Below are positions 3,691 to 34,437 of a DNA stretch of 64,000 nt, one piece after another. Source of the DNA: Marsupella aquatica (taxonomy: Eukaryota > Plantae > Marchantiophyta); NCBI GenBank assembly GCA_973895155.1, contig OZ316894.1, positions 619,968-683,967 of the forward strand. The letters are read 5' to 3'. Each line of letters opens with the position of its first letter. Within the stretch, counting starts at the first letter, position 1. The notes beneath the pieces were generated by a model that saw only the letters and a program-made list of their open reading frames with translations, made no database searches and was not told the origin of the DNA. A program made the position numbers and the translations under genes.

Positions 3691-3731
3691 AGTATATAGA
3701 GCAGCCCCCCGGTAGAGACGAGGGGGGGGGG
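3691..3731 (+). promoter_or_regulatory. Putative TATA/core promoter of LTR C
   Basis: GTATATAGA followed by C-run, GGTAGAG and G-run; homologous to 930-967. Confidence 0.5.
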
Positions 3732-6700: not shown

Positions 6701-7844
6701 AGAATACCATGAAGCAACAGTATGATAAAAAGTTGAAACCAGTTAGTATTCACACAGGAGATCTTGTATTACTTTATGACAGTAGGTATAGTAGGTTTCT
6801 AGGTAAACTTTATACTCGCTGGTTAGGACCTTTCAGGGTAACCATGATGTTCTCCAATGGCTCCGTGCAATTGGCCAACATTACTAGAGAGGTGTACCCA
6901 GTTCGCATCCATTACGACCGCCTCAAGAAATACTATATGGACAAAGATGAAGTTGTTCGCGAGGACGCTTCACAATTAAGTGGGGAGCTATGTGATGCCT
7001 AGCCAGGAATCACTAGGCCAGTTTAAATGGAAAAAATGAGAAGTGTACCCTAGAAACACATTAGTATAGTGACAAAAAACATGGAAAATATAAACAATTA
7101 AGGGTGACTATGGATGTGGTGCGTCCCATGGCTCCCCAAACCCAAGAAACCCCCCTGCGCAGGCCAATTCCCGTAGGTTTTGTCCCTGGCGAGGCCGTTT
7201 TCGCGGCTTAGCGGCATGGGACGCTGCTAACTTCCTTCTACTACTTCTATTAACATTTTACACACATATACTAGACAGATCCTTCATCGGGTCATGAGAT
7301 ACGTAGCCGGCCTAATCTAGGCCTTCCCTTGTATTCTTTCTTTAGGTATATTTGGATTCCGCCGCCGGAATGATCCCCAATTGGCTTGGTTAAGCCGCTA
7401 AGACCTCTCTCAGCTCGACACATCCAACTCTCACTCCCTTGCTTACTTCCCTTCTCTCCTTTAGTTGATGTGGGCACTCTTCACACAAGTTAATGCGACA
7501 CACAAATAGCAAAATGACTCCTTCTGACTGAGTTATACGATGCACTTGCCATACAAACAGTACATCTCATACACAAGTTCTGCGAACTAAGCCGTGAGGC
7601 CAACTCTATTAAGCTCTTAGGCATGAGGAAACATGAATATACACAAGGGTCACCGTATAACTAACCGAGAGCTTCTCTTACTACTTGATCCCAGCCCTAC
7701 TGGTGCAACTAAAAACTTGCTAAGAAGAGGCCCTGAACTCCCCGCTGCCCAGGTACTTATCCGGGTAGTGGATCCGCCTAATTCCTTGCAGCGTAAGCCT
7801 AATCTATCCTACCCATAATCTACCTAACTACAGCGAGGCAGGAG

Positions 7845-10800
7845 TGTGATGCCTAGACAGGAATCACTCGGCCAGTTAAGTGGGTAAAGCAGGAAGGCAC
7901 CCTAGGAACACCTTAGTATAGGGACAAAACAAGGAAAATATAAACCATTAGGGGCAACCATGGAACCCGGGCCGAGGCCGGAGGTAAGGACGCTGAGGGT
8001 GAAAACTCGATTAGGGTTAGGGCGCGTTAAGCATCGGCGGCTAGGAAGGATCAACGGGAAGAAGGACCGGCAGAGGAGAGGGGTAAGGAGCGCTTGCAGG
8101 AGATGGTGGCTCATTTGCGAGCACGAACTAGGCAGACGACTACGGGAGCCCAACTACTGTCAGCTGCTTAGGCAAGCACTCGGGGAGAGAGTAGATACCG
8201 ACGATCGACCTAAGGAGGGTATGAGCAACGTCAATCAAGCGGCACATTTCTGGGGATGCCTGTTCGAACGGGCAACTGAGTACATCAAGACTTACGAGGA
8301 TGAGGAATCAAAAAGGGCAGCTCGAGAACGGCAGGAGCTCGCTCGATTGTGGGAGCTGCAGAAGACGGCTTTCTTAGGAGGCGAACTCATCAAGGACGAG
8401 TTCCTGTGGACGCCTACTTCCAATCAACTCGACGATCTTCTGTTTTGCAAAGACAGCGTCGTCGGCATCCGAGAGGCCATCAAGAACTGCAACGACATAC
8501 ACTGGGAATTAAAGGGTAGCACGGAAAGGTGGACCCAGGCAATGGTGCTAGGAGAAACCTCCACGGCAGCAAAGATGAAGAGGAAGGGAGCCGTCAACGA
8601 TGAAGCCACCCCGGCAAAAAGAACGAGGTCGGCGGCACCAAAGAAGCCAGCCGAGCAGCAGAGCAGGAGGCAGGGAGAAGCCGAAGAGGAGGAGGTCGAT
8701 CCCATCAAGGCCATTCCAACCAGGGATGACACCTGGAAGGGCTGGGCGGCAACCCTACCGGTGGAGGTGCAACTACATTTTGCACGGGAGGAGGATGCAT
8801 GCTTCACGGCCATGCAGACCAAGAAGTACCAAGGCTTCATGGCCGGATCCGGCTTAGAGGCCTTTGTAAGATTACCATGGCTGAAGCCGGAGGTACCGGA
8901 GTCAGACCTATTAGAATTCGTGGGGTCATGGGAACCCGAGACCAATTGCATGAGGATATATGGGAAGGATTTCTATCTTACTCCCAAGGTAATTGCCGAA
9001 GTGTTTGGCTTGCCGATAGGCAATAAGACCAAAGTTGAGACCAGGAAGACCTTGCCTGACAAGGAGTTCCGGTCGTTCCCCGGGCCATCAACGAAGAATG
9101 GCTTCTTCCGGAACACCTACACCAACCCGCACATAGGAGAGATGATCGACTTCTTGCGGGTGACCATGCATTGTAACTTGCCGAGGGCAGAGATCGGCAA
9201 GGCACAGGTCTATCTGGCAGAAAGGCCAGACCCAAGCCGGGACTACAACGGGTACCTCCTCAACCAATTGAAGAAGATCTTAAAGGAGGAGCAGCAGGTA
9301 ATCGGCATGGGGAGCGTGTCGCGGCTTGGCTATCACATGCCGCTGTTGTGCCGGTATGCCAGAGGTCAGACTTTTGCCCCGGTACTTCCCCTGCAGGTAA
9401 GGGCACCCGAGGAAGCTCCAACGCCGAGGCCGTTGGCTGAGAAGCCTCAACCACCTGTTAGCCCTACGATCGAGCAGGTGTTTAGGCCCAGGAAGGAGGA
9501 CTTGCCAATGCAGCAACCAGGCATGCAGAGTCTGCTGAAACTACTGGAGAAAGAAAAGAAATCGGCATCAGCAACAACAACGGCAACGGCAACAATGCAC
9601 GACACTACTACAGAGGTAGGCCTACACCGGCTCACAAGAGAAAACCCCTTTGCTGGAGACAAGGAGAGAATCAGGCCTGAATCCAAGCCAGGTGTTTGAA
9701 TGTATGTGGGAATCTCAAGCTCCGAATCCGAGGCAGAATTGCCTGAAGCTCCTACCGACGAAGAGGAGAGGGAGAAGCCGGACGGCCAAGAAGTAGAGGA
9801 GGCAGTGGAGGACTGCAGCCATGATAATTCCGGCTATGGGTCGGACCATCACGTCCCAGGAGTAAGGACCTGTGGCCGGTTTGTCCCCACACTTCCAAGG
9901 GTAGTGCGAGGGGACCCCAACCAGCAGAGTAGCCCTGAGTCTCCCCCACCAGATGTTGCTCCCCCGAGCTTCGACGGCATAAAACAGACGGTGCAGGAAT
10001 TTCAGGAGCGAATCAAGCAGGAAGAGGAGGCAGCCCTGGCTAGGGAAAAGGATTTACCAGGAGGAGATTGGCCGGAGGACATCAAGCGGCTAGCCAAAAA
10101 AGGAAGCAAACCTCTAGCCACGATTGAAGAGATCCGTAAGACGGCTTGGGAGCAGAGGCCGCGATGGGCGATGCCGATCACTTCTACTTACTCCACCTAC
10201 GCTAAGAATAGAGCCATGGAGTATGGTGAGATGTGTGGGGAACTTGCGCTCGGCATCTTCGGAGAGGAGTTGGAGGTAGGACCCTTTTTCCATAGGGAGC
10301 AGTTGGAGAAGCACCAATTAGAAGAAGCGGTGGCTTTAGAGAGAAGCAAGAAGGACGAGGTCATTCGGCGGCTTAGGAGGATGGAAGCCGAGATTGAAGA
10401 TCTAAGGGCGGCCAAGAAAGCCCAAGATGAACTGCGGATTAAACGACATGAGCTGAACATCATGCAGGGGCAGTTGGACACCGCGCAGGCTGATAATCAG
10501 AATATCAAGGATAAACTGACTCAGACGCAGGGAGAGTTGGCCGACACGATCAAAGAGAGGGAGAAGTGGAAGCAAGAGCTGAAGAATACAGAGGAGGCCC
10601 ACATAACAGCCAACAGCCGGGCCATGGCGGAGACCCAAAGAAAGGAATGGGCGTTGAAGGGGGAGCTCGAGAAAATCCGCGGAGCCCTTGAGCAGAAGGA
10701 GGCCGAGTTAGGGAAATCCTATCAAGGGATTATGGCGCTGCAGCAGGAGCTTGCGTCCCTGACGGCCAGCTTCAAGGCCGACCTAAGGGAGAAGGACGAG

Positions 10801-12506
10801 ATGCTCGAACAGACTTACGCCAAGATGAACCAGATGGAGTCTGTCATCATTGCAGAGCTCGACAAGGAGCTAAGAGCAACCCAGGAGGAGAGGACTACCT
10901 TGAAACAAGAACGGGAGGAAGCCCAGAAGGAACTAGAGGAGGCACGCAAGGACCTGGATGAGACCCAGGAGGAGTTGGAGGAAATCACGAGGAAGATGGA
11001 GAACCTCCAGCGGCGGGCCGACAACCAAACGGAGCGGCTGAAGAAACAAGCCGCAGTATTTAAGTGCTTGTCTTCATCAGGCCCAACTCCAATTGGGGCA
11101 ACCAAGTTACCAGGAGTGGTACTGGCCGAAGAAAAAGCCGCGCCAACTGCACCAGTGCCGGAAGTAAGTGGGAAGGGGAAGGGACCAGCTGCCGAACCAG
11201 AAAAGAAGAAAAAGCGGAAACCTTCAGGGTCAAGGAGTAATCCGACTCCACAAGCCGTGGTGACCAAAGAGGTAGAACCAGCACCATCCTCCGGCATGAA
11301 TACGGCAATAGATCCCGCTATCATCACAGGTGGGGGTGGTGCGGCCCAAGCCGAACTACTCAGTAATGAGGCCGGTATTCCAGATCCGCCTCTTGAGCAG
11401 GCCGGGGAGACCGTAGCCGAGGCTGAGGCCGTAACCGATTCCCAAGCCAATGCCGACGCCGATGGTGGACCCAGTCAGGCCGAGGGAGAATTGACTCAGT
11501 CAAGGACAGGTAATCTGTCAAGGAATGAGCCTACGGCAGTGGCTGAGGAGGAAGCGTTGGGGGCGTCCATTAAGGATCCACCACCGGTGTCGTGACGGTG
11601 CAAGGGCGCCGTTCCTTTTAGGGAGGGCGGACGTGGAGGGAGGAGGCGTGAGTGGGCAGGGCGGGCGCGGATCTCCACGTTTAGGATTAGGATCAGAACC
11701 AGGAGCGGCCCTGACACTTAGCTTAGTGGGATTGCGGTCCCACTGGTAGGAGCAACACTTGTGCTCCTGCCTTGCTGTACATAGGTAGATTCGGGCAAGT
11801 AGATTACTGTTAGGTAGATTAGGCTTACGATGCAAAGAATGGCGGATCCACTACCAGGATAAGTACCTGGGCAGCGGGGAGCTCAGGGCCTCTTCTTTAG
11901 CAAGTTTTTAGTTTGCACCAGCCGGGCTGGGATCAAGTAGTACGAGAAGCTCTCGGTTAGTCATACAGTGACCCTTGTGTATATTCATGTTTCCTCATGC
12001 CTAAGAGCTGAATAGAGTTGGCCTCACGGCTTAGTTCGCAGAACTTGTGTATGAGATGTACTGTTTGTATGGCAAGTGCATGGTATGACTCAGTCAGAAT
12101 GAGTCATTTTGCTATTTGTGTGTCGCATTAACTTGTGTGAAGAGTGCCCACATCAACCAAAAGGAAGGAAAGTAAGCAGGGGAGTGAGAGTTGGATGTGT
12201 CGAGCTGAGAGAGGTCTTAGCGGCTTAACCAAGCCTATTGGGGATCATTCCGGCGGCGGAATCCAAACATACCTAACAAGACGGAGGGGAAGACAGGGGA
12301 AGGCCTAGATTAGGCCGGCTACGTATCTCATGACCCGATGAAGGATCTGTCCAGTATATGTGTGTAAAATGTTAATAGTAGTAGTAGAAGGTTAGCAGCA
12401 TCCCATGCCGCTAAGCCGCGGAAACGGCCTCGCCAAGCGCAAAACCTGCGGGAATCGGCTTGAGCTGGGGGTTTCTTGGGTTTAGGGAGCCATGGGACGC
12501 ACCACA
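7845..12506 (+). mobile_element. Family B copy B3 (4662 bp), nested in B2
   Basis: TGTGATGC...GCACCACA termini; exact TSD AGGAG at 7840-7844 and 12507-12511. Confidence 0.95.
7960..11595 (+). pseudogene. Family B long ORF (Athila-ORF1/plant transposon protein-like domain plus long coiled coil), one premature stop
   Basis: ORFs 7960..9699 and 9700..11595 are in the same frame, separated by TGA where B4 has CGA. Contains motif LLEFVGSW..RIYGKDFYLTPKVIAEVFGLP and a heptad-rich C-terminal half. Confidence 0.8.
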
Positions 12507-12680
12507 AGGAGCACAAGTGTTGTTCCTACGAGTAAATCCGCAATCCCACTAATCTAAGTGTCAGGGCTGTCTCCTGGTCCTGATCCTCATCCTAATCTTG
12601 GAGATCCGAGCCCGCCCTGCCCACTCACGCCTCCTACCTCCATGTCCGCCCTTCCTAAAAGGAACGGCGCCCTTGCACCG

Positions 12681-15600
12681 TCACGACACCGGTGGTGGAT
12701 CCTCAATGGACGCCCCCAACGCTTCCCCCACAGCCATTGTCGTCGGTCCTTCCTCTGATAGATTACCTGCCCCGGACCGAGTCAACTCTTCATCGGCCTG
12801 ATTGGGTCCACCCTCGGCTTCGGCCTCAGCATCGGCCACCGTCTCCCCGGCATGATCTAGTGATGGATCTGGTACCCCGGCTTTATCACCAAATATCCTG
12901 GCCCCGGCTTCATCATCCCCGCTTTCTAGGGCAGTTGGATCCTCTGCCGTGACCCTGCCTGGTGTTGGATTTACCTCCTTGGTCACGCCGGTTTGAGAAG
13001 CCGTATTACTCCCTGACCCAAAAGGTTTTCGCTTCTTCTTCTTCTTTGGTTTGGCAGCTGGCCCCTTCCCCTTGCCACTTACCTCCGGCACCGGTGCGAG
13101 TGTCTCGGCTTCTCCTTTGGCCAGTACTACACCAGGTAACTTGGTTGCCCCAATTGGAGTTGGTCCTGAGGAAGCCAAGCACTTAAATACTGTGGCCTGT
13201 TTCTTCAGTCGCTCCGTTTGGTTGTCGGCTCGCCGCTATAAGTTCTCCATCTTCCTCGTGTTTTCCTCCAACTCTTCCTGCAATTCATCCAGGTCCTTCC
13301 TTGCCTCCCTCAGCTCCTTCTGGGCTTCTTCCAACTCTTTCTGGGCTTCCTCCAACTCTTTCTGTAAGGTAGCCCTCTCCTCCTGGGTTGCTCTTAGCTC
13401 CTTGTCGAGCTTCGTAACGACCTTAGACTCCATTTTATTCATCTTGGCATAAGTCTGGTCGAGCTGGTCGTCTTTCTTGCGGAGGTTGGCCTTGAAGCTG
13501 GCCGTCATGGATGCGAGCTCCTGCCGTAGCACGATAATCGCCTGATAGGATTTCCCTAACTCGGCCTCCTTCTGCTCAAGGGCTCCGCGTTTATCCTCGA
13601 GTTCCCCCTTCAACGCCCTCTCCCTTCTCTGAGTCTCCGCCATGGCCCGGTTGTTGGCTGCTATGTGGGCCTCCTCTATGTCTCTCAGCTCTCGCTTCCA
13701 CTTCTCCCTTTCTTTGACCGCCTCGGCCAACTCTCCTTGAGTTTGAGTCAGTTTATCCTTGATAATCTGATTATCAGACTGCGCGGTATCCAACTGCCCC
13801 TGCATGATGTTTAGCTCATGCCGTTTAATCCATAGCTCATCTTGGGCTTTCTTTGACGCCTTCAGGTCTTTTACCTTGGCTTCCCTCTCCCTAAGCCGAC
13901 GGATGACCTCGTCCTTCTTGCTTCTTTCCAAAGCCACCGCTTCTTCTAATCGGTGCTTCTCCAACATTTCCCTCCGGAAAAAAGGTCCCTGCTCAAATTC
14001 CTCCCCAAAGATGCCGAGCGCAAGTTCCCCACACATCTCCTCGTACTCCATGGCTTGTTCTTTAGCATAGGCGGAGTGAGCAGAAGTCATCAGCATCATC
14101 CATCGCGGCCTTTGTTCCCAGGCAGCCTTGCAAATTTCTTCTATCATGGCTGGCGGGCTGCTTCATTTTTCTCCAAGCCGTCGGATGTCCTCCGGCCATT
14201 CTCCTCCTGGCACGTCTCTCTCCCTAGCCAGGGCTGCCTTCTCTTCCTCTCTGAGTCGCTCCTGAAACTCTTGTGCCGTCTGCTTGATGCCGTCAAAACT
14301 TGGGGGAGCGATATCTGGTGGGGGAGACTCGGGGCTGCTCTGCTGGGTCAGGTCCCCTCGAACTACTCTTGGAAGAGTGGGGACGAACCTGCCACAGGTC
14401 CTTATTCCTGGAACATGATGGTCCGACCCGTAGCCGGAGTCATCATTGTCGTAGCCCTCTACCGCCTCCTCCTCGGCTTGGACTATTGGCTCCCCCCACT
14501 GCTGTCCTGGTCCTGCCGTGATCACCACCCCATAGATCCTGGGTTCTGGTTCCTCCGGTTTCCACGTTGATCTTATCTTCTCCCTATCATGACCAGGGGC
14601 TTCGGGCTACTTCTCCCCGGCTTCGGGACTTGAAGCTCCTACATACATTTGGACTCCCCGCTCGTGTTCCGGCCTCCTTCCCTCCTTGGCCCCTATAAAG
14701 GGGTTTTCCATGGTAAGTTGGCTAAGGCCGACTTCGGAAGCAATATTTGGTACTGGCCCCGTTGCCGTTGCCGTTCTCCTTTCCTTCTCCAGCAATTTCA
14801 GCAGATTCTGCATGCCTGGTTGCTGCATCGGCAAGTCCTCCTTCCTCGGCCTAAACACCTGCTCGATTGTAGGACTGTTGGGCTGGGTTGGTTTCTCTGT
14901 TGCCGGCCTCGGTTCTGGAACCTCCTCTGGTGCCCTTACTTGCAGGGGCAGTACCGGGGCAAATACCTGGCTTCGGGCATACCGGCACAACAGCGGCATG
15001 TGATAACCAAGCCGGGACACGCTTTCCATGCCGATCACCAGCTGTTCCTCCTTCAAGATCTTCTTCAGTTGGTTAAGGAGGTACCCGTTGTAGTCCCGGC
15101 TTGGGTCTGGCCTCTCTGCCAGGTAGACCTGTGCCTTGCCGATCTCTGCCCTTGGCAAGTTGCAATGCATGGTCACCCGCAAGAAATCAATCATTTCTCC
15201 GATGTGCGGGTTGGTGCAGGTGTTCCGGAATAAGCCATTCTTTGTTGATGGCCCTGGAAACGACTGGAACTCCTTGTCTGGCAAGGTCTTCCTGGTCTCT
15301 ACCTTGGTCTTATTGCCCATTGGCAAGCCAAACACTTCGGCAATCACCCGGGGAGTGAGATAGAAATCCTTCCCATACACCCTTGTGGAATTGGTCTCGG
15401 GCTCCCATGATCCCACGAATTCTAATAAGTCTGAATCCGGCATCTTTGGCTTCAGCCATTGTAATTTTACGAAGGCTTCCAAGCCGGATCCGGCCATGAA
15501 GTCCCGGTACTTCTTGGTCTGCATGGCCGTAAAGCATGCATCCTCCTCCCGTGCAAAATGCAGTTGCACCTCTTCTGGTAGGATCGCCGCCCAGCCTTTC

Positions 15601-16376
15601 CAGGTGTCATCCTTTGTTGAAATGGCATTGATGGGATTGACCTCCTTCTCTTCGGCTTCCGCCTGCCTCCTGCTTCCCTGCTCTACTGGCTTCCTTGGTG
15701 CCGTCGACCTCGTTCTTTTTGCCGGGGTGGCCTCTTCGTTGTTGTTTCCTTTCCTCTTCATCTCGGCTGCCATGGATGTCTCTCCTAGCATGGTTGCCTT
15801 TGTCCACTCCTCCGTGCTACCCTTCAACTTGCAGTGTATGTCGTTGCAGCGGTTGATGGCTTCCCGAATGCCGACGATTATGTTTTTGCAAAACAGAAGG
15901 TCGTCAAGCTGATTGGCAGTAGGAGTCCACAAGAACTCGGCCTTGATGAATTCTCCTCCTAAGAAGGCAGATTTCTGCAGCTCCCATAGTCGAGCTAGCT
16001 CCTGCTATTCTCGAGCTGCTCTCTCTGATTCTTCATCCTCGTAAGTCCCAATGTACTCAGCTGCCCTTTCAAACAGGCATCCCCAAAAATGTGCCGCTTG
16101 ATTGACGTTGCTCATACCCTCCTTGAGTCGTTCGTTGGTATCTGTTTCCGCCCAGAGTGTTTGTCTAAGCAGTTGGCAGTAGTTGGCCTCCCGTAGTCGT
16201 CTGCCCAGTTCGTGCTTGCAAATGAGCCACCATTCCTCGCGAGCTGTCCTTACCCCTCTCCTCCTCTGGTCTTCCCTATCGTTGGTTACCACTAGCCGCC
16301 GACACTTAGTGTGCCCTAACCCTAATTGTATTCTCTCCCCCGGCGTTCTTACTTCCGGCCTCGGCCCGGGTTCCAT
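12681..16376 (-). pseudogene. Family B ORF in B2, several stops
   Basis: ORF pieces 16005..16382, 14607..15932, 14163..14528, 13236..14147 and 12681..13178 are colinear with the B5 protein. Confidence 0.85.
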
Positions 16377-18879
16377 AGTCACCCTTAATTGTTTATATTT
16401 TCCTCATTCCTATAACTATACTAAGTTGTTTCTAGGGTAAACTTCCGTTTTCCCATTTAACCGGCCTAGTGATTCCTGGTTAGGCATCACAATGGAACCC
16501 GAGCCGAGGCTGGAAGTAAGGACGTCGGGGGAGGGAACACGATTAGGGTTAGGGCGCACTAAATGTCAGCGGCTAGGGGTAACCAATGGGAGGGAAGACC
16601 AGGGAAGGAGGGGGGTAAGGACCGATTGCAAAGAATGATGGCTCATTTGCAAGCACGAACTAAGGAGACGGCTACGTGAAGCCAACTACTGTCAGCTGCT
16701 TAGCCAAGCACTCTGGGCGGGAGCAGATACCGACAATCAACTCAAGGAGGGTATGAGCAACGTCAATCAAGCGGCACATTTTTGGGGATGCCTATTTGAA
16801 CGGGCAATTGAGTACATTGGGACCTATGAAGATGAAGAATCAGAGAGAGTAGCTCAAGAATGGCATGAGCTCGCTTGACTGTGGGAGCTACAGAAGTCTG
16901 CCTTCTTAGAAGGAGAACTCATCAAGGGTGAATTCCTGTGGATACCTACTGGCTACGAGCTGGACAACATTCTATTTTGTGAAAACAGAATCGTCGGCAT
17001 CCGGGAAGCCATCAACCGCTGCAACGACATACATTGGGAGTTGAAGGGTAGCACGGAGGGGTGGACAAAGGCAACCGTGCTAGGAGAAACATCCACGGCA
17101 GCCGCTATGAAGAGGAAAGGGAACAACAACAAAGAGGCCACCCCTGCAAAAAGAACGAGGTCGGCGGCACCAAGGAAGCCAGTTGAGCAAAAGAGCAGGA
17201 GGCAGGCAGAAGTAGAGGAGGAGGAGGTCGAACCCATCAAGGCCGTTCCAACAAGAGATGACACCTGGAAAGGCTGGGCCGCAATCCTCCCCGAGGAGGT
17301 GCAATTACACTTTGCACGTGAAGAGGATGCATGCTTTACGGCTATGCAGACTCGGAAATACCAGGGCTTCATGGCCGGATCCGCCTTGGAAGCCTTCATG
17401 AAATTACCATGGTTGAAACCGGAGGTGCCGGATTCAGACTTATTAGAATTTGTGGGATCATGGGATCCCGAGACAAATTCCACAAGGGTGTATGGGAAGG
17501 AGTTCTATCTCACTCCCCGGGTGATTGCCGAAGCGTTTGGCTTGCCGATGGGCAATAAGACCAAAGTAGATACCAAGAAGACCTTGCCTAACAAGGAGTT
17601 TTGATCGTTTCCAAGGCCATCAACAAAAAATGGCTTCTTCCGAAACACCTGCACCAACCCGCACATTGGAGAGATGATCGATTTCTTGCGGGTGACCATG
17701 CATTGCAACTTGCCGAGGCCAGAGATCGGCAAGGCACAGGTTTACCTGGCGGAGAGGCCAGACCCCAGCCGGGAGTACAATGGATACCTCCTCACCCAAT
17801 TGAAGAAAATCTTGAAGGAGGAACAACAAGTGATTAGCAAGGGAAGTGTGTTCCGGCTTGGCTATCACATGCCGGTATGCCCAAAGTCCGATCTTTGCCC
17901 CGGTACTTCCCCTACAGGCAAGGGCACCAGAGCAGGTTCCGGAACAGGGGCCGGCAGCAGAGAAACCCAACCAGCCCGACAGTCCTACGATCGAACAGGT
18001 GTTTAGGCCAAGAAAAGAAGACTTGCCGATGCAGCAACCAGGCCTGCAAAATCTGCTGAAATTGCTGGAGAAGGAGAAGAGGACGGCACTGGCAACGGAA
18101 CCAGCAACGCCACCGATTAAGGACACTGCCCCATAAGTCGACATAAGCCAACTCATGAGGGAAAACCCCTTTATCGGAGCCAAGGAGAGAAGAAGGCCGG
18201 AACATGAGTCGGGAGTCCGAATGTATGTAGGAGCCTCGAGTCCCGAAGCCGAGGGAAAGCAGCTCAAAGCTCCTGGTCGCAACCGGGAGAAGAAGAGATC
18301 AGTCGGGAAGCCGGAGGAGGAACCAGTACCCGTGAGCTGTGAGGCCGTGTTCACGGCAAGACTAGGGGAGTAGCGGGAGGAGCCGGTAGTCCAAGCAGTG
18401 GAGGAGGCGGTGGAGGACTACGGCAATGATAACTCCGGCTACGGATTGGACCATCATGTTCCAAGAGTAAGGACCTGTGGCCGGTTCATTCCCACTCTTC
18501 CAAGAGTAGTTCGAGGGGACCCCACCTAGCAGAGCAGTCCCGAGTCTCCCCCATCAGATGTCGCTCCCCCGAGCTTTGACGGCATAAAATAGACGGCACA
18601 AGAGTTTCAGGAGCGACTCAGGGGGGAAGAGAAGGCAGCCCTGGCTAGGGAGAAAGATTTACCAGGGGGAGAATGGCCGGAGCACATCAGGTGGCTTGCA
18701 GAAGAACGAAGCAGCCCTCCAGCCACGATAGAAGAAATCCGCAAGGCGGCTTGGGAACAAAGGCCGCGATGGTTGATGTCGATGACTTCTACTCACTCCG
18801 CCTATGCTAAAGAAAGAGCCATGGAGTATGGGGAGATGTGTGGGGAACTTGCGCTCAACATCTTTGGGGAGAAGTTGGA

Positions 18880-21800: not shown

Positions 21801-23550
21801 TGTTGCCGTTGCCATTGTCGTTGCCGATGCCGATCTCTTTTCTTTCTCCAGTAGTTTCAGCAGACTCTGCATGCCTGGTTGCTGCATCGGCAAGTCCTCC
21901 TTCCTTGGCCTAAACACCTGCTCGATCGTAGGGCTAACAGGTGGTTGAGGCTTCTCTGCTACCGGCCTCGGTGCTGGAGCTTCCTCGGGTGCCCTTACCT
22001 GCAGGGGAAGTACTGGGGCAAAAGTCTGACCTCTGGCATACCGGCACAACAGCGGCATGTGATAGCCAAGCCGCGACACGCTCCCCATGCCGATTACCTG
22101 CTGCTCCTCCTTTAAGATCTTCTTCAATTGGTTGAGGAGGTACCCGTTGTAGTCCCGGCTTGGGTCTGGCCTCTCTGCCAGATAGACCTGTGCCTTGCCG
22201 ATCTCTGCCCTTGGCAAGTTACAATGCATGGTCACCCTCAAGAAGTCGATCATCTCTCCTATGTGCGGGTTGGTGCAGGTGTTCCGGAAGAAGCCATTCT
22301 TCGTTGATGGCCCGGGGAACGACCGGAACTCCTTGTCAGGCAAGGTCTTCCTGGTCTCAACTTTGGTCTTATTGCCTATCGGCAAGCCAAACACCTCGGC
22401 AATCACCTTGGGAGTAAGATAGAAATCCTTCCCATATATCCTCGTGCAATTGGTCTCGGGTTCCCATGACCCCACGAATTCTAATAGGTCTGAATCCGGC
22501 ACCTCCGGCTTCAGCCATGGTAATCTTACAAAGGCCTCTAAGCCGGATCCGGCCATGAAGCCTTGGTACTTCTTGGTCTGCATGGCCGTAAAGCATGCAT
22601 CCTCCTCCCGTGCAAAATGTAGTTGCACCTCCACCGGTAGGGTTGCCGCCCAGCCCTTCCAGGTGTCATCCCTGGTTGGAATGGCCTTGATGGGATCAAC
22701 CTCCTCCTCTTTGGCTTCTCCCTGCCTCCTGCTCTGCTGCTCGGCTGGCTTCTTTGGTGCTGCCGACCTCGTTCTTTTTGCCGGGGTGGCTTCATCGTTG
22801 ACGGCTCCCTTCCTCTTCATCTCTGCTGCCGTGGAGGTTTCTCCTAGCACCGTTGCCTGGGTCCACCTTTCCGTGCTACCCTTCAATTCCCAGTGTATGT
22901 CGTTGCAGTTCTTGATGGCCTCTCGGATGCCGACGACGCTGTCTTTGCAAAACAAAAGATCGTCGAGCTGATTGGAAGTAGGAGTCCACAAGAACTCGTC
23001 CTTGATGAGTTCGCCTCCTAAGAAAGCCGTCTTCTGCAGCTCCCACAATCGAGCGAGCTCCTGCCGTTCTCAAGCTGCCCTTTCTAATTCCTCGTCCTCG
23101 TAAGTCTTTATGTACTCAGTTGCCCGTTCGAACAGGCATCCCCAGAAATGTGCCGCTTGATTGACGTTGCTCATACCCTCCTTAGGTCGCTCGTCGGTAT
23201 CTACTCTCTCCCCGAGTGCTTGCCTAAGCAGCTGACAGTAGTTGGCCTCCCGTAGTCGTCTGCCTAGTTCGTGCTCGCAAATGAGCCACCATCTCCTGCA
23301 AGCGCTCCTTACCCCTCTCCTCTTCCGGTTCTTCCTCCCGTTGATCCTTCCTAGCCGCCGACGCTTAACGCGCCCTAACCCTAATCGAGTTTCCACCCCC
23401 AACGTCCTTACCTCCGGCCTCGGCCCGGGTTCCATGGTCGCCCCTAATTGTTTATATTTTCCTTGTTTTGTCCCTATACTAAGGTGTTTCTAGGGTGCCT
23501 TCCTGCTTTACCCACTTAACTGGCCGAGTGATTCCTGTCTAGGCATCACA
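18880..23550 (-). mobile_element. Family B copy B4 (4671 bp), nested in B1
   Basis: Same termini as other B copies; exact TSD TTGGA at 18875-18879 and 23551-23555. Confidence 0.95.
19795..23435 (-). pseudogene. Family B ORF in B4
   Basis: ORFs 23070..23435, 20922..23048, 20685..20921 and 19795..20829 closely match the B3 protein. Confidence 0.85.
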
Positions 23551-26500
23551 TTGGAGCAGGGACCTTTTTTCCAAAGGGAGATGTTGGAAAAACGCTGATT
23601 AGAAGAAGCGGTGGCTTTGGAGAGAAGCAAGAAGGACGAGGTCATCCGACGGCTTAGGGAGAAGGTAGCCAAGGAAGACCAGAGGGCGGCCAAGAAAGCC
23701 CAAGATGAGCTGCAAATTAAGCGGCATGAGCTAAACATCATGCAGGGGCAATTGGATACCGCGCAGTCTGATAATCAGATTATCAAGGATAAACTGACTC
23801 AGACCCAAGGAGTGTTGGCCGATGCGATCAAGGACAGGGAGAAGTGGAAGCAGGAGCTGAGGGATGCAGAGGAGGCCCACATAGCCGCCAACAACCGGGC
23901 CATGGCGGAAACCCATAGAAGGGAGAGGGCGTTGAAGGGGGAGCTCAAGGATATCTGCGGAGGCCTTGAGCAGAAGGAGGTCGAGTTAGGGAAATCCTAT
24001 CAGGCGATTATTGTGCTACAGCAGGAGCTTGCATCCCTGACGGGCAGCTTCAAGGCCGACCTGCGTGAGAAAGATGACCAACTCGACCAGACTTATGCCA
24101 AGATAAATAAGATGGAGTTTGAGGTCGTAATAGAGCTCGACAAGGAGCTAAGGGCAATCTAGGAGGAGAGGGCTACCTTAAAAAAGGAACTGGAGGAATC
24201 CCAGAAAGAGCTAGAGGAAGCCCAGAAGGAGCTGGAGGAGGCGCGCAAGGACCTGGACGAATTGCAGGAGGAGTTGGAGGAAAGCACGTGGAAGATGGAG
24301 AACTTACAGCGGCAAGCCGACAACCAAACGAAGCGGCTGAAGAAACAGGCCGCAATATTTAAGTGCTTGGCTTCCTCAGGTCCAACTCCAATTGGGGCAA
24401 CCAAGTTTCCAGGAGTAGTACTGGCCAAAGGACAAGCCGAGACACTCACACCAGTGCCGTAGGTAAGTGGCAAAGGGAAGGGACCAACTGCCGAAATAGG
24501 GAAGAAGAAGAAGCGGAAACCTTATGGGTCAGGGAGTAACACGGCTTCTCAGGCCGGCGTGACTAAGGAGGTAAACCCGGCACCAACCTCAGGCAGGGTC
24601 ACGGCAGATCCAACTGTCCTACAAGGCGGGGATGGCAAGGGCAAAGCCGAAATGCTCAGTGATGAGGCCGGTGTACTGAATCCACCACTAGAGCAGGCCG
24701 GGGAAGCCGTAGCCATACCAGAAGCCATGGCCGATGCTAAGGCCGAAGCCGAGGGTGGACCAAGTCAGGCCGATGGAGAGTTGACTTGGTCCGAAGTAGG
24801 TAATCTGTCAGAGGTCGGGCCTACGGTAGTGGCTGCAGAGGAAGTGTTGGGGGCGTCCATTGAGGATCAGCCACCGCTACCATGACGGTGGTGGGGGGCC
24901 GCTCCTTTTAAGGAGGGTGGACGTGGAGGGAGGAGGCGTGAGTGGGCAGGGCGGGCTTAGATCTCCAAGTTTAGAATTAGGATCAGGAGCGGGAGGCGGC
25001 CCTGACACTTAGATTAGTGGGATTGCGGATCCACTGGTAAGAGCAACACTTGTGCTCCTGCCTCGCCGTACATAGGTAGATTACAGTTAGGATAGATTGG
25101 GCTTACGCTACAAGGAATTGGGCGGATCCACTGCCAGGATAAGTACATGTGCAGCGGGGAGTCCAGGGCCTTCTTCCTTAGCAAGTTTTTAGTGCACCAG
25201 CAGGGCTGGGATCAAGTAGTAAAAGAAGCCCTCGGTTAGTTATACTGTGACCTTGTGTATATTCATGTTTCCTCATGCCTAAGAGATGAATAGAGTTGGC
25301 CTCACAGCTTAGTTTGCAGATCTTGTGTATGACAAGTACTATTTGTATGGCAAGTGCATGGTATAACTCAGTCAGAAGGAGTCATTTTGCTATTTGTGTG
25401 TCGCATTAACTTGTTTGAAGAGTGCCCACATCAACCAAGAGAAGGAAGTAAGCAGGGTAGTAAGAGTTGTATGTGTCGAGCTGAGAGAGGTCTTAGCGGC
25501 TTACCCAAGCCAGATGGGGATCATTCCGGTGGCGGAATCCAAATATACCTAAAGTAGAGAGGAAGACAAGGGAAGGCCTAGATTAGGCCGGCTACGTATC
25601 TCATGACCCGATGAAGGATCTGTCCAATATATGTGTGTAAAATGTTAATAGTAGTAAAGAGCAAGTTAGCAGCGTCCCATGCCGCTAAGCCGCGGAACCG
25701 GCCTCGCCGTGAGCTATACCTGCGGGAATCGGCTTGCGCACGGGGGGTTTCTTGGGTTTAGGGAGCCATGGGACACACCACAGAGATACTCACTTGGATT
25801 GAGCAATTGGAAGGCTCTGGAATCCTTGAGGGTTGTGTCTACCACATCCTCAATGGAGGAGAGGTCTATCTCCTCTGTTGGCTGAACGACCAAAGACACA
25901 TGAATAGGTCTAGATGGATCCATCTTGTGACACGTGGCCGTATGGACACATGGAGGATCACAGAGCGTTAGATCTAGGGCAATTAACGTGGCGGCTAGGG
26001 CAGAAACTCTAGTGTGAAGGCGGAGGTGGAGTGGGGCCTAGGGAGACTGGAAGCGAATGAGGCGGAGGATCGGAGGAGCAAAGAGCGGAGGAGCGGAGGA
26101 GCGGAGGGGCAGGAGCGGAGGAGCAGAGAAGAGGAGGAGGGAAGAAGAATGAGGCCCAAGTGGGACCTCTTGCCTCCTTTACCCCCCTCCAAGGCGAGGC
26201 AAGGCCGACTCAACACGTGGGAGGCCGAGGTGCGAGGCGGGGCAAGACAGCCGTGCAAGGCAAACCCTAAACACAAGGCTGCGTAAATTGTGCCGCTTGA
26301 CTTGGTTGTGTGGTGTGGGTGACCTAATCCACTCGACCCTAAACTCCGCCGCTACTTAAGGCTAATCACGCATCGCCTTATCCATAAGAGCGATCATGAA
26401 CAAATGGTATAAGATACTTGGGCTGGTCCGGCTGGTCCTCATTTGGTATTTTCATTTCTAGATTTTCATTCAGTCTCTCAACCAGGTCCGTTCATTATGG

Positions 26501-26854
26501 AGCCCCATTGAGCCACTCTTGTTTTCTAGACAAAACATCTAGTTTTAATTTCTTCCACACCCCTGAAGCATTTAGTTTACCAGCTTACTGATAACTACCC
26601 CTTCAACAAAGTATTTGATTACTTGGTTTGACAACATAAACTAAGTGAGTTTTGTGTTCAAGAATCATTTTCATTACAAGTAACTTTCAACTTAATTACA
26701 GAATATTCCATTGGTATCAAATTTAGGAATTGTATATCTAAGTTACTTAAGGTTGGGGTATCCAGCCCAACTCACGATTGGGATCATCTCAATCCAACCT
26801 TTCTTTGGTCAAACATTAAATTAGTGTGTAGAGGTTAACTGTCCGTACAAGGGT

Positions 26855-27760
26855 CATCCCTGTTAGCTGTTTGGATAGGGATCATCCTTATGTATTGTTT
26901 GGATAAGAATGATGTCTGTCCACCGTTTGGATAGAGATGATCCCTGTCCACCGTTTGGATGGGGATGATCCCTGTCCGGCTTTTGGATAAGAATGATGTC
27001 TATCCACCGTTTGGATGGGGATGATCCCTGTTCGGATTTTGGATAGGGATGATTCTTGTCCACCGTTTGGATAGGGATGATCCCTATCCACCCTTTGGAT
27101 GGGGATGATCCTTGTCCACCATTTGGATCCCTGTCCACCATTTGGATGAGGATGATCCCTGTCCACCGTTTGGATGGGGATGATCCCTGTCCGCCGTGAT
27201 CCCTGTCCACCGTTTGGATGGGGATGATCCATGTCCGCCATTTGGATAGGGATGATCCCTGTCTGCCATTTGGATAGGGATGATCCCTGTCCGCCGTTTG
27301 AGGTATTTGCTTTATGGGATCCCAATATGAAAGGTTTTACTTGATAGGACCGCTGAGTGATCCTAAGTGATCCGGACCTTGAATCATCCATGTCTATTGT
27401 TTGGACAGTGATAGACCCTGTCCGCCATTTGGACAGGGATCAGCTGTGTCTGCCCTTTGGACATTAACAGACACTATCCGCCGCTTAGGCAGGGATGATC
27501 CCTGTTTGCCGTTTGGACAGTGACAGACCCTATCCACCGTTCTGACAGGGATCATCTCTGTCCGGATTTTGGACAGGGATGATCCCTGTCTGCCGTTTAC
27601 AGGGATCATCTATGTCCACTGTTTGGACAGTGACAGAACCTATCTGCCGTCTGGACAGGGATCATCCCTATCCAAAGTCTGAATAGGGATCAGGGATCTT
27701 TGGGCTAGATAAGGATTGTTTAGGGACCTATTATTTTGCTTGATGGGGATGATCCCTATT
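26855..27760. repeat. 28-bp minisatellite with internally palindromic unit (two blocks)
   Basis: Consensus GATGATCCCTGTCCACCGTTTGGAYRGG with period 28 (e.g. 26936 to 26964). ATCCCTGTCC and GGAYAGGGAT arms are complementary. Confidence 0.88.
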
Positions 27761-27892
27761 TGCGCACTGTGCTTGGTGTGATGCCTAGCCAGGAATCACT
27801 GGGCTAGTTTAAAGTGGAAAAGGGAAGTGTACCCTAGAAACACCTTAGTATAGTTACAAAAATAAGGAAAATATAAACAATTAAGGGTGACT

Positions 27893-30800
27893 ATGGAACC
27901 CAAGCCGAGGCCGGAAGTAAGGACGCCAGGGAAGAGAACACAATTAGGGTTAGGGCACGCTAAGTGCCGGCGGCTAGGGGTCACCAACGGGAGAGAGACG
28001 CCGAGGAGGAGAGGGGTAAGGACCGCTCGCGAGGAGTTGTGGCTCATTTGCAAGCACGAACTGGGCAGGCGACTATGGGTGGCCAACTACTGTCAACTGC
28101 TTAGGCAAGCACTTAGGGTGGGAACAGATACCGACTATCAACTCGATTAGGGTATGAGCAACGTCAATCAAGTGGCATATTTTTGGGGATGCCTGTTCGA
28201 ACGGGCAACTGAGTACATTGGTACTTACGAGGACGAAGAGTCGGAGAGAGCAACTCGAGAACGGCAGGAGCTTGCTCGATTGTGGGAGCTGCAGAAAGCT
28301 GCCTTCTTAGGAGGAGAACTCATCAAAGCCAAATTCTTGTGGACTCCTACTACCAATCAACTTGACGACCTTCTATTTTGCGAAGACAGAGTCGTCGGCA
28401 TCCGTGAAGCCATCAAACGCTGCAACGACCTACACTGGGAGTTGAAGGGTAGCACGGAGGGGTGGACAAAGGCAACCGTGCTCGGAGAGACATCCACGGC
28501 AGCCGAGATGAAGAGGAAGGGAAATAACAACGATGAGGCCACCCCGGCAAAAAGAACGAGGTCGGCGGCACCAAAGAAACCAGCCGAACAGCAGAGCAGG
28601 AGGCAGAGAGAAGCCGAGGAGGAGGAGGTCGACCCCATCAACGCCGTTCCAACGAGAGATGACACCTGGAAAGGCTGGGCGGCGATCCTCCCCGAGGAGG
28701 TCCAATTACACTTTGCAAGGGAGGAGGATACATGCTTTACGGCTATGCAGACTCGGAAGTATCAGGGCTTCATGGCCGGATCCGGCTTGGAAGCCTTCGT
28801 AAGGTTACCGTGGCTGAAGCCGGAGGTGCCGAATTCAGACTTACTTGAATTCGTGGGATCATGGGAGTCCGAGACCAATTCCACAAGGGTGTATGGGAAG
28901 GATTTCTATCTCACTCCCCAGGTGATTGCCGAAGTGTTTGGCTTGCCAATGGGCAATAAGACCAAGGTAGATACCAGGAAGACCTTGCCAGACACGGAGT
29001 TCAGGTCGTTTCCAGGGCCTTCAACGAAGAATGGTTTCTTCCGTAGCACTTGCACCAACCCGCATATAGGAGAGATGATCGATTTCTTGCGGGTAACCAT
29101 GCATTGCAACTGGCTGAGAGCAGAGATCGGCAAGGCACAGGTCTATCTAGCAGAGAGGCCAGACCCAAGCCGGGACTATAACGGTTACCTCCTCACTCAA
29201 CTAAAGAAGATCTTGAAGGAGGAACAGCTGGTGATCGGCAAGGGAAGCGTGTCTCGGCTTGGTTATCACATGCCGCTATTGTGCCGGTATGCCCGGAGTA
29301 AGACCTTTGCCCCGGTACTTCCCCTACAGGCAAGGGCACCAGAGGAGGTTCCGGAACAGAGGCCGGCAACGGAGAAACCCAACCCGCCTGACAGTCCTAC
29401 AATTGAGCAGGTGTTTAGGCCAAGGACGGAGAACTTGCCAATGCAGCAACCAGGCATGCAGAATCTGCTGAAACTGCTGGAGAAAGAAAAGAGAACGGCT
29501 ACGGCATCGGCAACGACAACAACAATGGCAACGGCAACAATGCAGGACACTGCTCCAGAGGTAGGCCTAAACCGGCTTACAAGGGAAAACCCCTTTACCG
29601 GAGTCAAGGAGAGAAAGAGGCCGGAACACGAACCGGGAGTCCGGATGTATGTAGGAGCCTCTAGTCCCGAAGCGGAGGAGAAGCAGGCCGTAGCTCCCGG
29701 CCACGACAAGGAGAACAAGAGATCAACACGGAAGCAGGAGGAGGAACCAAGACCGGCAGGAGATGAAGCCGTGTTCACGACAAAACCAGGAGAACAACGG
29801 GAGAAGCCGGTAGTCCAAGCCGAGGAGGAGGCGGTGGAGGACTACACCAATGATAACTCCGGCTACGGGTCGGATCATCATGTTCCAGGAGTAAGGACCT
29901 GTGGCCGGTTCATCCCCACGCTCCCAAGAGTAGTCCGAGGAGACCCGAGCCAGCAGAGCAGCCCCGAGTCTCCCCCACCAGATGTCGCTCCCCCGAGCTT
30001 TGACGGCATAAAACAGACGGCGCAGGAATTTCAGGAGCGAATCAGGGAGGAAGAGGAGGCAGCCCTGGCTAGGGAGAAGGATTTACCAGGAGGAGAATGG
30101 CCAGAGAACATCAGGTGGCTTGCAAAAAAACGAAGCAGCCCTCCAGCCACAATAGAAGAGATCCGCAAGGCGGCTTGGGAACAAAGGCCGCGGTGGATGA
30201 TGCCGATGACTGCTACTTCCTCCACCTATGCTAAAAATAGAGCCATGGAGTACGGGGAGATGTGTGGAGAGCTGGCACTCAGCATCTTTGGGGAGGAGTT
30301 GGAGCAGGGACCCTTTTTCCAGAGGGAGATGTTGGAGAAGCGCCATTTAGAAGAAGCGGTGGCTTTGGAAAGAAGCAAGAAGGACGAGGTCATCCGTCGA
30401 CTTAGGGAAAGGGAAGCCAAAATCAAGGACCTGAGGACGGCCAAGAAAGCCCAAGATGAGCTGCGGATTAAGCGGCATGAGCTAAATATCATGCAAGGCC
30501 AGTTGGATACCGCACAGTCAGACAACCGGATTATCGAGAATAAACTGACTCAAACCTTAGGTGAGTTGGCTGATGCGATCAAGGAGCGGGAGAAGTGGAA
30601 GCGAGAGCTGAGGAATGCAGAGGAGGCCCACATAACAGCCAACAACCGGGCCATGGCGGAGACCCAAAGAAGGGAATGGGCGTTGAAGGGGGAGCTTGGG
30701 AATATCCGCGGAGCCCTTGAGCAGAAGGAGGCCGAGTTAGGGAAATCCTATCAAGGGATTATTGCGCTGCAGCAGGAGCTTGCGTCCCTGACGGCCAGCT

Positions 30801-31837
30801 TCAAGGCCGACCTGCGTGAGAAGGACAATATGCTCGATCAGACTTACGCCAAGATGAACCAGATGGAGTCTGTCATCATTGCAGAGCTCGACAAGGAGTT
30901 AAGAGCAACCCGGGAGGAGAGGGCTACCTTGAAGAAGGAATTGGAGGAAGCCCATAGGGAGCTGGAGGAAGCCCAGAAAGAACTGGAGGAGGCGCGCAAG
31001 GACCTGGACGAAGTACAGGAGGAGTTGGAGGAAAGCACGCGGAAGCTGGAGAACTTACAGCGGCGATCCGACAACCAAACGGAGCGGCTGAAGAAACAAG
31101 CCGCAGTATTTAAATGCTTGGCTTCATCAGGCCCAACTCCAATTGGGGCCACCAAGTTACCAGGAGTGGTACTGGCCGAAGAACAAGCCGCGCCACTTGC
31201 ACCAGTGCCGGAAGTAAGTGGGAAGGGGAAGGGACCAGCTGCCGAACCAGAAAAGAAGAAGAAGCGGAAACCTTCAGAGTCAAAGAGTAATACGGCTCCA
31301 CAAGCCGTGGTGACCAAGGAGGTAGACCCAGCACCGACCCCAGGCAGGGTCACGGCAGAGGATCCAACTACCCTAGAAGGAGGGGACGGTAAAGCCGATG
31401 CCAGGATACTCGGTAATGAAGCCGAGGTACCGAACCCGCCACTTGAGTGTGCAGGGGAGGCCGTAGCCGATGCTGAGGCCGTAGCCGATGCTGAGGCCGT
31501 AGCCGATGCTGAGGCCGTAGCCGATGCTGAGGCCGTAGCCGATGCTGAGGCCGTAGCCGATGCTGAGGCCGTAGCCGATGCTGAGGCCGTAGCCGATGCT
31601 GAGGCCGTAGCCGATGCTGAGGCCGTAGCCGATGCTGAGGCCGTAGCCGATGCCGAGGCAGAAGCCGATGCTGAGGCCGTAGCCGATGCCGAGGCAGAAG
31701 CCGATGGTGGACCCAGTCAGGCCGATGGAGAGTTGACTCAGTCAAGGGCAGGTAATCTGTCAGAGAACGAACCTACGGCAGTGGCTGAGGAGGAAGCGTT
31801 GGGGGCGTCCACTGGGGAACAGACACCGCTGCCATGA
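27893..31837 (+). CDS. Family B long ORF, near-intact (one stop at 28148; 1227 aa open downstream)
   Basis: ORFs 27887..28150 and 28154..31837 are in the same frame. Contains the plant-transposon-protein-like motif, a coiled coil and a KKKKRK basic NLS-like patch. Confidence 0.8.
31457..31708 (+). repeat. In-frame 18-bp tandem repeat x14 encoding EAVADA
   Basis: GAGGCCGTAGCCGATGCT units; the other B copies have only 1-3 degenerate units. Confidence 0.92.
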
Positions 31838-32829
31838 CGATGGTGGAGGGCCGCTCCTTTCAAGGAGGGCGGACGTGGAGGGAGGAGGCGAGAGTGGGCA
31901 GGGCGGGCGCGGATCTCTAAGTTTAGGATTAGGATTAGGACCAGGAGGCGGCCCTAACACTTAGCTTAGTGGGATTGCGGTTCCACTGGTAAGAACAACA
32001 CTTGTACCCCTGCCTCGCTGTACATAGGTAGATTCAGTTAGGTAGATTCAGTTAGGTAGATTAGGCTTACGCTGCAAGGAATTAGGCGGATCCGCGCCAG
32101 GATAAGTACCTGGGCTGCGGGGAGCTCAGGGCCTCTTCTTTAGCAAGTTTTTAGTTGCACCAGCCGGGCTGGGATCAAGTAGTAAGAGAAGCTCTCGGTT
32201 AGTCATACAGTGATCCTTGTGTATATTCATGTTTCCTCATGCCTAAGAGCTGAATAGAGTTGGCCTCACGGCTTAGTTCGCAGAGCTTGTGTATGAGATG
32301 TACTGTTTGTATGGCAAGTGCATGGTATGATTCAGTTAGAAGGAGTCATTTTGCTATTTGTGTGTCGCATTAACTTGTGTGAAGAGTGCCCACATCAACT
32401 AATAGAAGGAAAGTAAGCAAGGGAGTGAGAGTTGGATGTGTCGAGCTGAGAGAGGTCTTAGCGGCTTAACCAAGCCTATTGGGGATCATTCCGGTGGCGG
32501 AATCCAAATATACCTAACCAGAAGGGGGAAGACAAGGGAAGGCCTAGATTAGGCCGGCTTCGTATCTCATGACCCGATGAAGGATCTGTCCAGTATATGT
32601 GTGTAAACTGTTAATAGTAGTAGTAGAAGGAAGTTAGCAGCGTCCCATGCCGCTAAGCCGCAAAAACGGCCTCGCCAAGCGCGAAACCTGCGGGAATCGG
32701 CTTGTGCAGGGGGGTTTCTTGGGTTTAGGGAGCCATGGGACGCACCACACTTGGATAGGGTTCACACCTATCTGCTTCCTAGTTGGGACCATTGTTAACT
32801 AATTATACCTTACATTTCAAATTGTGCAG

Positions 32830-33730: not shown

Positions 33731-33738
33731 TAGCGAGG

Positions 33739-34294: not shown

Positions 34295-34437
34295 GTAGCT
34301 TTACTCTGGTGGAATCACAATACTTTCCCAATTTCCATAGGGGAGTAATTACTTTGGTTCGGTGGCGGATTGATTCAACAAAACTACTTGCAAACGGGAA
34401 ATTTTTGTCAGACATTTTGGTTGAAGGTTCAGAGAGG

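Follow-up and report, generated by a model that had tools for sequence, protein, structure and literature searches.

Family B is a set of five repeated units within a 64-kb window (64,000 nucleotides, the whole stretch of DNA examined, in whose numbering all positions are given) of contig OZ316894.1 from the liverwort Marsupella aquatica. We regard it as highly probable that B is the long terminal repeat (LTR) of a high-copy, non-chromovirus Ty3/gypsy retrotransposon, and comparison of its copies indicates that three quarters of this 5-kb LTR is a selected gene. The evidence comes from one copy, B3, which abuts the end of a gypsy pol gene and its polypurine tract (PPT), from metagenome relatives with the same junction, and from the substitution pattern of the open reading frame (ORF) that the copies share.

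Self-comparison of the window and inspection of unit ends delimited five units of ~4.7-5.0 kb, all with TG..CA ends. Every copy begins with TGTGATGC, four end in GCACCACA and B3 ends in ACACCACA, and the terminal inverted repeat is complementary at seven of eight positions. Exact 5-bp target-site duplications (TSDs) flank all four copies that are not joined to pol; B3 (flanks AGCTA / GAGAT) has none. An earlier, sequence-only reading had described five copies with the same boundaries, an imperfect 8-bp inverted repeat and 5-bp TSDs in four, all of which were re-found. It had also reported B to be devoid of internal repeats, gag, pol and transposase, which agrees with our searches: the units hold no internal LTR pair (the sole internal repeat of B5 is an 18-bp array), and the Pfam scan of the B ORF pieces gave coiled-coil noise only, with no gag, pol or transposase family. 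What can be added to that description is the nesting of four copies, only B5 being separate:

B3, 6991..25782, + strand: outermost copy, with the most decay; interpreted as the 3′ LTR of the gypsy element on its left; no TSD; pieces 6991-7114, 16492-18879 and 23551-25782 (+), interrupted by B2 and B4, ~4,734 bp in sum
B2, 7115..16491, - strand: putative solo LTR in B3; TSD ATGGA; pieces 12507-16491 and 7115-7844 with B1 between them, ~4,710 bp in sum
B1, 7845..12506, + strand: putative solo LTR in B2; TSD AGGAG; 4,662 bp; one ORF stop
B4, 18880..23550, - strand: putative solo LTR in B3; TSD TTGGA; 4,671 bp; ORF with two stops and one 1-bp deletion
B5, 27777..32749, + strand: putative separate solo LTR; TSD CTTGG; 4,973 bp

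In pairwise comparison, B1, B4, B5 and the long B2 piece are 83-88% identical, the exception being B1-B4 (96.7%). The family is very abundant in runs X1 and X2, and part of B1 was found in 14 of the 16 listed runs. Contigs of X1 and X2 also contain an empty B5 site, in which 27771 is joined to 32750 and the 4,978 skipped bases equal B5 plus one TSD, although the B5 flank is itself repeated and the site may thus be paralogous. B5 is inserted into another repeated element; to its left, 28-bp tandem arrays (26869-27673) follow a TGGTATCA site at 26712 that resembles a primer-binding site (PBS). No tRNA gene was found in the B units, and an Rfam scan of B5 yielded six matches, all far under the gathering score. 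All three nested insertions are antisense to their host copy, which is not significant, and further B-into-B joints occur in contigs (32749 to 29952, and 32750 to 29909). Self-insertion is reported for some families, though LTRs are seldom targets (PMC6911290).

The left flank of B3 holds a gypsy pol and PPT that the sequence-only reading did not report, with the following features:

RT (reverse transcriptase), 1616-2418, + strand: recognised by motifs by eye, not by the Pfam scan
RNase H, 5107-5600, + strand: same pol as RT, separated from it by element D (2419-5106)
integrase and pol tail, 5567..7002, + strand: frameshift near 6597; the frame ends four codons inside B3; no chromodomain
pre-PPT motif and PPT, 6955..6990, + strand: conserved; abuts the TG of B3

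The Pfam scan recognised RNase H (E 9e-36) and integrase (E 4e-9) in this pol, the tail of which aligns with the ends of related integrases. From RT onward, RNase H runs straight into the integrase, with neither an extra RNase H nor a chromodomain, and only RT, RNase H and integrase families were found in the whole pol of relative L004 and in the RT-to-integrase part of relative L001. The PPT motif lies 55 nt past the integrase end and ahead of the ORF, so B does not have the Athila/OTA layout, in which an extra ORF stands between pol and PPT. The junction reads GTTCGCGAGGACGC...CAC...GGGGAGCTA, then TG, a pattern with a single match in the window, at B3, and none in 100 shuffles.

In reverse transcription, one and the same PPT determines where both ends of the product lie. 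In L001, a complete relative, the motif precedes a PBS-delimited LTR, and therefore it marks the start of the 3′ LTR. B3 is very likely the 3′ LTR of the element whose pol adjoins it on the left, and this position, right after pol and PPT, would explain why it has no TSD. The other four copies (B1, B2, B4 and B5) would then be solo LTRs left by LTR-LTR recombination. The sequence-only reading had offered two options: an LTR carrying a complete accessory gene, which is favored by the succession of pol end, motif, PPT and TG at B3 together with the selection on the ORF described below, and a non-autonomous unit mobilised intact, which is not needed. Membership of the Phygy clade was considered and rejected, as Phygy elements are described as short, lacking an extra ORF, and using an NCGN target with mostly 4-bp TSDs (PMC6317226, PMC6911290), whereas B has 5-bp TSDs and a long extra ORF.

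Alternatively, B could be a DNA transposon whose transposase is divergent and whose ends are short terminal inverted repeats, B3 lying by chance at a gypsy pol end. Such an element would account for the imperfect 8-bp inverted repeat, the TSDs, the single long ORF and a distant link to the Transposase_32 family (see below). However, B3 is without a TSD and begins precisely at the PPT motif, the relatives of the core domain of the B protein are found in gypsy elements beside pol, and Transposase_32 itself sits in a sunflower Athila extra ORF (PMC11728184). The sequence-only reading had held that a hidden transposase fold would make B an ordinary DNA transposon, and no transposase fold or motif appeared, either in Pfam searches of the B pieces or in the structure comparison of the core domain. 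A DDE DNA transposon was rejected on the same grounds (B3 without TSD and abutting the PPT, no transposase Pfam family), and we consider a DNA transposon of any such kind extremely improbable.

Further support for B being an LTR came from 80 metagenome loci with a relative of the integrase, kept from 129 confirmed; the closest named relatives of the integrase are from Calypogeia, then Riccia and Marchantia, which would fit a leafy liverwort as the probable host. The junction pattern matches six of the 80 loci, all of them gypsy 3′ ends, and in a looser form also L008 and L010. L001 is a terminally redundant contig with a whole element, in the order pol, extra ORF, motif, ~1-kb LTR starting TGTGATG as B does, PBS, gag. 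Two layouts can be distinguished among these loci. In three (L001, L008 and L010), the extra ORF stands before the motif, which lies within 100 nt of the ORF stop. In five others (L004, L005, L006, L007 and L013), as in the window, the motif directly follows pol, and the ORF starts 0.5-0.8 kb past the TG in the first four, L013 ending too early. In L004 and L007, the TGTGGGA that follows the motif is the mirror of TCCCACA, with which the 5′ LTR ends ahead of the PBS, and the extra ORF begins 0.5-0.65 kb after TGTGGGA, before any trace of the 5′ LTR end; therefore, the ORF begins inside the 3′ LTR. In L005 and L006, no second motif match was found in the 0.2 and 1.1 kb after the ORF.

The PBS of the relatives (L001, L004 and L007), TGGCGCCGCTGCC, which we take to be of the tRNA-Asp type, lies 5-11 nt after the LTR. 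This spacing is as in Calypso and Diaspora (PMC1142308). In L001 (at 3761), L002 and L022, a GGGGGGAGCT purine tract without TG follows pol and is in turn followed by the extra ORF. Athila has two purine tracts per element, and the tracts of L001, in which the full motif comes after the ORF, fit two per element as well. In addition, the internal extra ORFs of L010 (2204-5098) and L001 (4213-6447) have extra C-terminal blocks rich in Cys, His and Trp, with no Pfam match.

In a 13-row integrase tree, the six rows with the motif directly after pol fall on one side of a branch with support of 85/88, and they are nested among internal-layout elements when the tree is rooted on the L008 group (80 in a 23-row quick tree); both trees are subsets of the fetched relatives, short, distant or unlabelled rows being omitted. 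A single origin of the ORF-in-LTR layout is thus neither shown nor rejected. A metagenome scan with the B profile gave 601 candidates, none confirmed, and IMG/VR held no relative of the L004 integrase; 12 motif matches in IMG/VR, none with integrase or B similarity, were taken as chance.

A further rival reading is that the ORF is an ordinary internal extra ORF, with a short LTR in the last 1 kb, and that the B units are non-autonomous, sub-genomic pieces, from the upstream purine tract to the right end, which integrase inserts whole. Three relatives do keep the ORF internally. The tail of B is non-coding and its most conserved part, it contains a GGGGAGCT stretch in B5, and in run X2 its contig depth is 1.9 times that of the ORF. 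Nevertheless, tail and ORF are about equally deep in runs X1 and X5, B holds no second junction motif and no second TGTGATG, and the motif, which comes after the ORF stop in L001, L008 and L010, stands ahead of the ORF in B. Moreover, a unit that begins at the PPT is an LTR, since one PPT defines both product ends. We therefore judge this arrangement unlikely, if less so than a DNA transposon.

Several observations weigh against reading B as a gene-carrying LTR. A gag-pol flanked by two B copies was not found, the element's 5′ end being beyond the window, and no PBS was readable after the end of B, where loose contig ends are mixed (agreement 0.36-0.47). The contigs of L004 and L007 stop within the ORF, leaving the full LTR unseen, and a single origin of the layout has support of only 85/88. 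Furthermore, no listed contig joins pol to B by the 31-letter rule (the best matches being of 24 and 18 letters), whereas contig depth is high across 6991 in four runs. Median contig depth, which is not a copy number, is 5.2 (X1), 3.0 (X2) and 3.4 (X5) times higher over the ORF than over pol, and would be weak support for an element with two LTRs for each pol, along with solo copies. At the pre-PPT motif (6943-7000), depth in run X5 reaches 13,000-35,600, as compared to 55-270 on the pol side, with loose ends beginning at 6954 and at 6995-6997; this 40-bp motif is all that other, more abundant families share. Finally, four of the five copies carry ORF stops, so that nothing shows selection on the solo copies themselves.

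To place the gene within the LTR, the relevant features of B5 are:

TATAAA, 27872..27877, + strand: at nt 96 in B5 and shared by B3; candidate ORF promoter element
upstream in-frame stretch of 87 codons, 27893..28153, + strand: from the first ATG; stop in B5; little selection
selected ORF, 28154..31837, + strand: 1,227 aa, no stop; 74% of B5
non-coding tail, 31838..32749, + strand: 912 nt, most conserved part of B (95-96% in its last 750 nt)

The ORF was assessed by its ratio of nonsynonymous to synonymous substitution rates (dN/dS). Compared with B5, this ratio is 0.22 for B1, 0.21 for B4, 0.25 for the B2 piece, and 0.23 and 0.30 for the B3 pieces, and the B1-B4 pair gives 0.33, while the two shifted frames give 0.85-1.82. 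The comparison among copies had been proposed as a check by the sequence-only reading, and values of 0.21-0.33, far below 1, leave ORF function standing. Within the ORF, dN/dS is 0.09-0.17 in the core domain and 0.49-0.79 in the acidic tail. In addition, 16 of 20 indels inside the ORF have lengths divisible by three, as compared to 2 of 29 outside, in counts whose pairs all share B5 and are not independent. Altogether, these patterns indicate that the B ORF is a gene shaped by purifying selection, that this selection acted in active lineages, and that the gene is almost certainly functional in the active lineage. The selected ORF is intact in B5; the seven stops of B1, B4 and the B2 piece all derive from CGN or CAG codons, the pattern that post-insertion decay should give.

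Regarding the start of the gene, the first ATG of B5 is at nt 117, from where the span to the stop makes up 79% of the unit, and a stop lies between it and the second ATG at nt 378. The 87 upstream codons have a dN/dS of 0.43-1.12 in five between-subfamily pairs, versus 0.21-0.30 for the remaining ORF. As these codons are little selected and stopped in B5, the real start is probably the second ATG (28154), although they are free of indels across the pairwise alignments, and a fast-evolving N-terminal extension is left open. Accordingly, the ORF bounds of the sequence-only reading stand for the ATG at nt 117 and for a stop about 900 nt from the end (912), with the selected part beginning only at nt 378. 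No AATAAA was found in the B tail. As 912 nt separate the ORF stop from the right end, and a strong-stop DNA of nearly 5 kb is improbable, the ORF probably lies in the unique 3′ region (U3) of the LTR.

The B5 protein consists of an N-terminal block, a basic linker, a core domain, a P/T/E-rich linker and a second conserved block, followed by a coiled coil (aa about 730-990), a lysine cluster and an acidic tail with a 6-aa repeat. The part that could be usefully modelled is:

core domain, 28649..29323, + strand: 225 aa; shares homology with the domain in the extra ORFs of related elements; VANC21 is its best fold match

A full HMMER protein scan with the B ORF gave 21 hits, and word-index protein searches gave nothing. 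One hit, P0122, is a repeat protein and was dropped from alignment A5, which also omitted P0126 (N-terminal block only) and P0139 (short); among 10 relatives looked up, all three named proteins come from Calypogeia fissa. By hhalign, the core-domain profile matched the extra ORFs of L001, L002, L004, L005, L006 and L022 with a probability of 96% (E 1.6e-9), and that of L008 with 92%. Moreover, when 5,447 frames were searched with the core profile, the best non-B matches were the extra ORFs of the relatives, and reversed frames scored no better than E 0.57. By profile homology, then, the B gene is of the same family as the extra ORF that the relatives have between pol and PPT. L008 also matches Transposase_32 weakly (E 2.5e-4). 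The sequence-only reading had suggested an ATHILA or plant transposon protein domain, and this holds indirectly, through L008, B itself having no Pfam match.

A core-domain model built from 26 sequences (pLDDT, the predicted score of a local distance difference test, 54.5; predicted template-modelling score, pTM, 0.47) was compared with 48,161 chains, and the only one with Z of 5 or more was DNA-bound VANC21 (PDB 9LNK; Z 5.8, root-mean-square deviation 4.2, 168 of 225 residues aligned), the next chain having Z 4.0 and 90 residues aligned. A first model, from four sequences, had been unusable (pLDDT 34). VANC is a sequence-specific anti-silencing protein with conserved domains and variable parts that hold tandem peptide motifs (PMC5735166); it has a predicted coiled coil and a structural relation to the PMD protein MAIN (PMC13547354). 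PMD-A domains are encoded by gypsy elements (PMC5418596), and MAIN and MAIL proteins are reported to oppose Polycomb silencing at DNA motifs (bioRxiv 10.1101/2024.09.27.615353).

Nevertheless, several results weigh against this resemblance. The quality of the model is mediocre (pLDDT 54.5), the tool calls values in the range of Z 5.8 common, and identity with VANC21 is 11%. Foldseek on PDB and viral models gave no match at E 0.001, its 18 chains giving no VIA match, and profile searches of PDB sequences did not find VANC21 or anything meaningful. There is no Transposase_32, ATHILA or PMD Pfam match in B, none of the 21 sequence relatives has Transposase_32, and the L008 match (21.4 bits) is under the Pfam cut-off of 45. 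On balance, we lean towards a PMD/VANC-like fold of the core, and treat the VANC21 resemblance as a lead, and a weak one; an anti-silencing role of the B protein seems doubtful.

It is also conceivable that B is an LTR with a gene, as proposed, but that its protein is a structural or trafficking helper (for the particle, nuclear import or integration targeting) or is env-like. The long coiled coil, the basic clusters and the weakness of the VANC match agree with a helper of this sort, and the repeated B-into-B insertion could reflect targeting. The sole outstanding fold match is, however, a plant transposon DNA-binding protein, and an env-like protein was set aside as unlikely, since the B protein has no transmembrane segment (top 19-residue hydropathy 0.8). 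Overall, we give this explanation only slightly less than an even chance.

Based on these results, an origin of B can be outlined. In the ancestor, a purine tract would have followed pol, with the true PPT coming only after the extra ORF. The upstream tract would then have taken over as the site of plus-strand priming and of the integrase end, bringing the ORF into U3, or else the ORF could have been transferred by recombination. Each round of reverse transcription, primed at the PPT after pol, would place the entire ORF in both LTRs, 5 kb of LTR homology would favor solo-LTR formation, and TATAAA at nt 96 could serve the ORF itself as a promoter element. The least certain step is the role of the protein, which may be a helper of the PMD/VANC/Transposase_32 type: nuclear, with a coiled coil, binding DNA or chromatin, and acting against the silencing of the family that encodes it. 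That a bryophyte gypsy clade moved its accessory gene into its LTR by a PPT switch, and that this gene encodes a VANC/PMD-like anti-silencing protein with its own promoter at the left end of U3, is, taken as a whole, slightly more doubtful than the anti-silencing role. If true, each solo LTR would be a complete transcription unit, and the recombination that disarms the element would leave, and multiply, its counter-defence gene. With both layouts present among close relatives, the change from an internal ORF to an LTR gene can be traced, and the domain link to the PMD/VANC fold would give a direct test of extra-ORF function. Moreover, solo LTRs like B resemble genes or DNA transposons to annotation tools.

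The remaining features of the window are:

family C, 1-1615 and 49809-51939 (-): ends TGACA; sense ORF of at least 410 codons with coiled coil
element D, 2419-5106: TGTGACG...CGTGACA, 2,688 bp, flanks TTTGT / TTTGC, between RT and RNase H
hairpin-like motif, at 4773, 7370, 12248, 19139, 25524, 32489 and 49992: TTCCG.GGCGGAA then ATACCTA, in B, C and D
LINE (long interspersed nuclear element) RT, 43227-46175, + strand
LINE zf-RVT fragment, 54706-55776, - strand
copia pol fragment, 61678-63558, + strand

The B tail had been said to share a motif with solo LTR C, and the shared motif was confirmed, though it is short (28 of 36 nt, E 0.011) and also present in family D. In B, C and D, the hairpin-like motif lies 180-330 nt short of the right end; it was absent from eight metagenome relatives checked, and is a candidate element of the repeat or unique 5′ region (R/U5). 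Family C, whose ORF, like that of B, ends about 900 nt from the right end, is possibly a second family with a gene in its LTR; its ORF and that of B are 26% identical over 215 aa (E 2e-4), mostly in the coiled coil, and homology is not claimed. In the copy at 49809, for which no left end was found, 51255-51477 and 51966-52188 form an inverted duplication. Element D, with a 26-bp tandem array at 2787-3130, is likely the solo LTR of a third family. Several long ORFs without Pfam match occupy 32799-42232 and 46675-49626, some of which look by eye like decayed DNA-transposon proteins.

Plant LTRs are treated as non-coding, and solo-LTR formation as a host route that removes retrotransposon genes. 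Genes in or overlapping U3 are known from retroviruses, namely MMTV (mouse mammary tumour virus) sag, nef and foamy-virus bel2; like B, these place a protein gene within the LTR, where it is copied to both ends, but they differ in their vertebrate hosts, much shorter LTRs and ORFs, and unrelated proteins. VANC21 of VANDAL21, which stands beside the PMD proteins MAIN/MAIL1, is the best, if weak, fold match of the core domain, and the tandem peptide motifs and predicted coiled coil of VANC can be set beside the 6-aa repeat and coiled coil of B; VANC, however, belongs to a Mutator-like DNA transposon of eudicots, with 11% identity to B and no sequence-level match. Ogre and giant-LTR elements resemble B in having LTRs of about 5 kb, a length known for plant LTRs (PMC6317226, PMC1142308); Ogre differs by its extra RNase H between RNase H and integrase, absent in B, and the text consulted in these sources mentions no LTR-internal gene for such elements. 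Full-text literature searches, which covered few subscription papers, yielded no plant retrotransposon with a whole gene in its LTR. In plant elements, extra ORFs have been reported either ahead of gag or from the stretch that separates pol from the 3′ LTR (PMC7264820; PMC6317226), and their function is an open question (PMC7264820; PMC11728184). Also among the closest known systems are the Athila/OTA sense extra ORFs (Athila ORF-1 PF03078, Transposase_32 PF20167 and PMD PF10536), which share with B a long sense ORF 3′ of pol, a non-chromovirus pol, a 5-bp TSD, an LTR near 5 kb, a distantly related domain and clusters resembling nuclear localisation signals (PMC6317226, PMC11728184). In comparison with these (PMC7264820), B has its ORF after the PPT, where it fills 74% of the LTR and is kept in solo LTRs.

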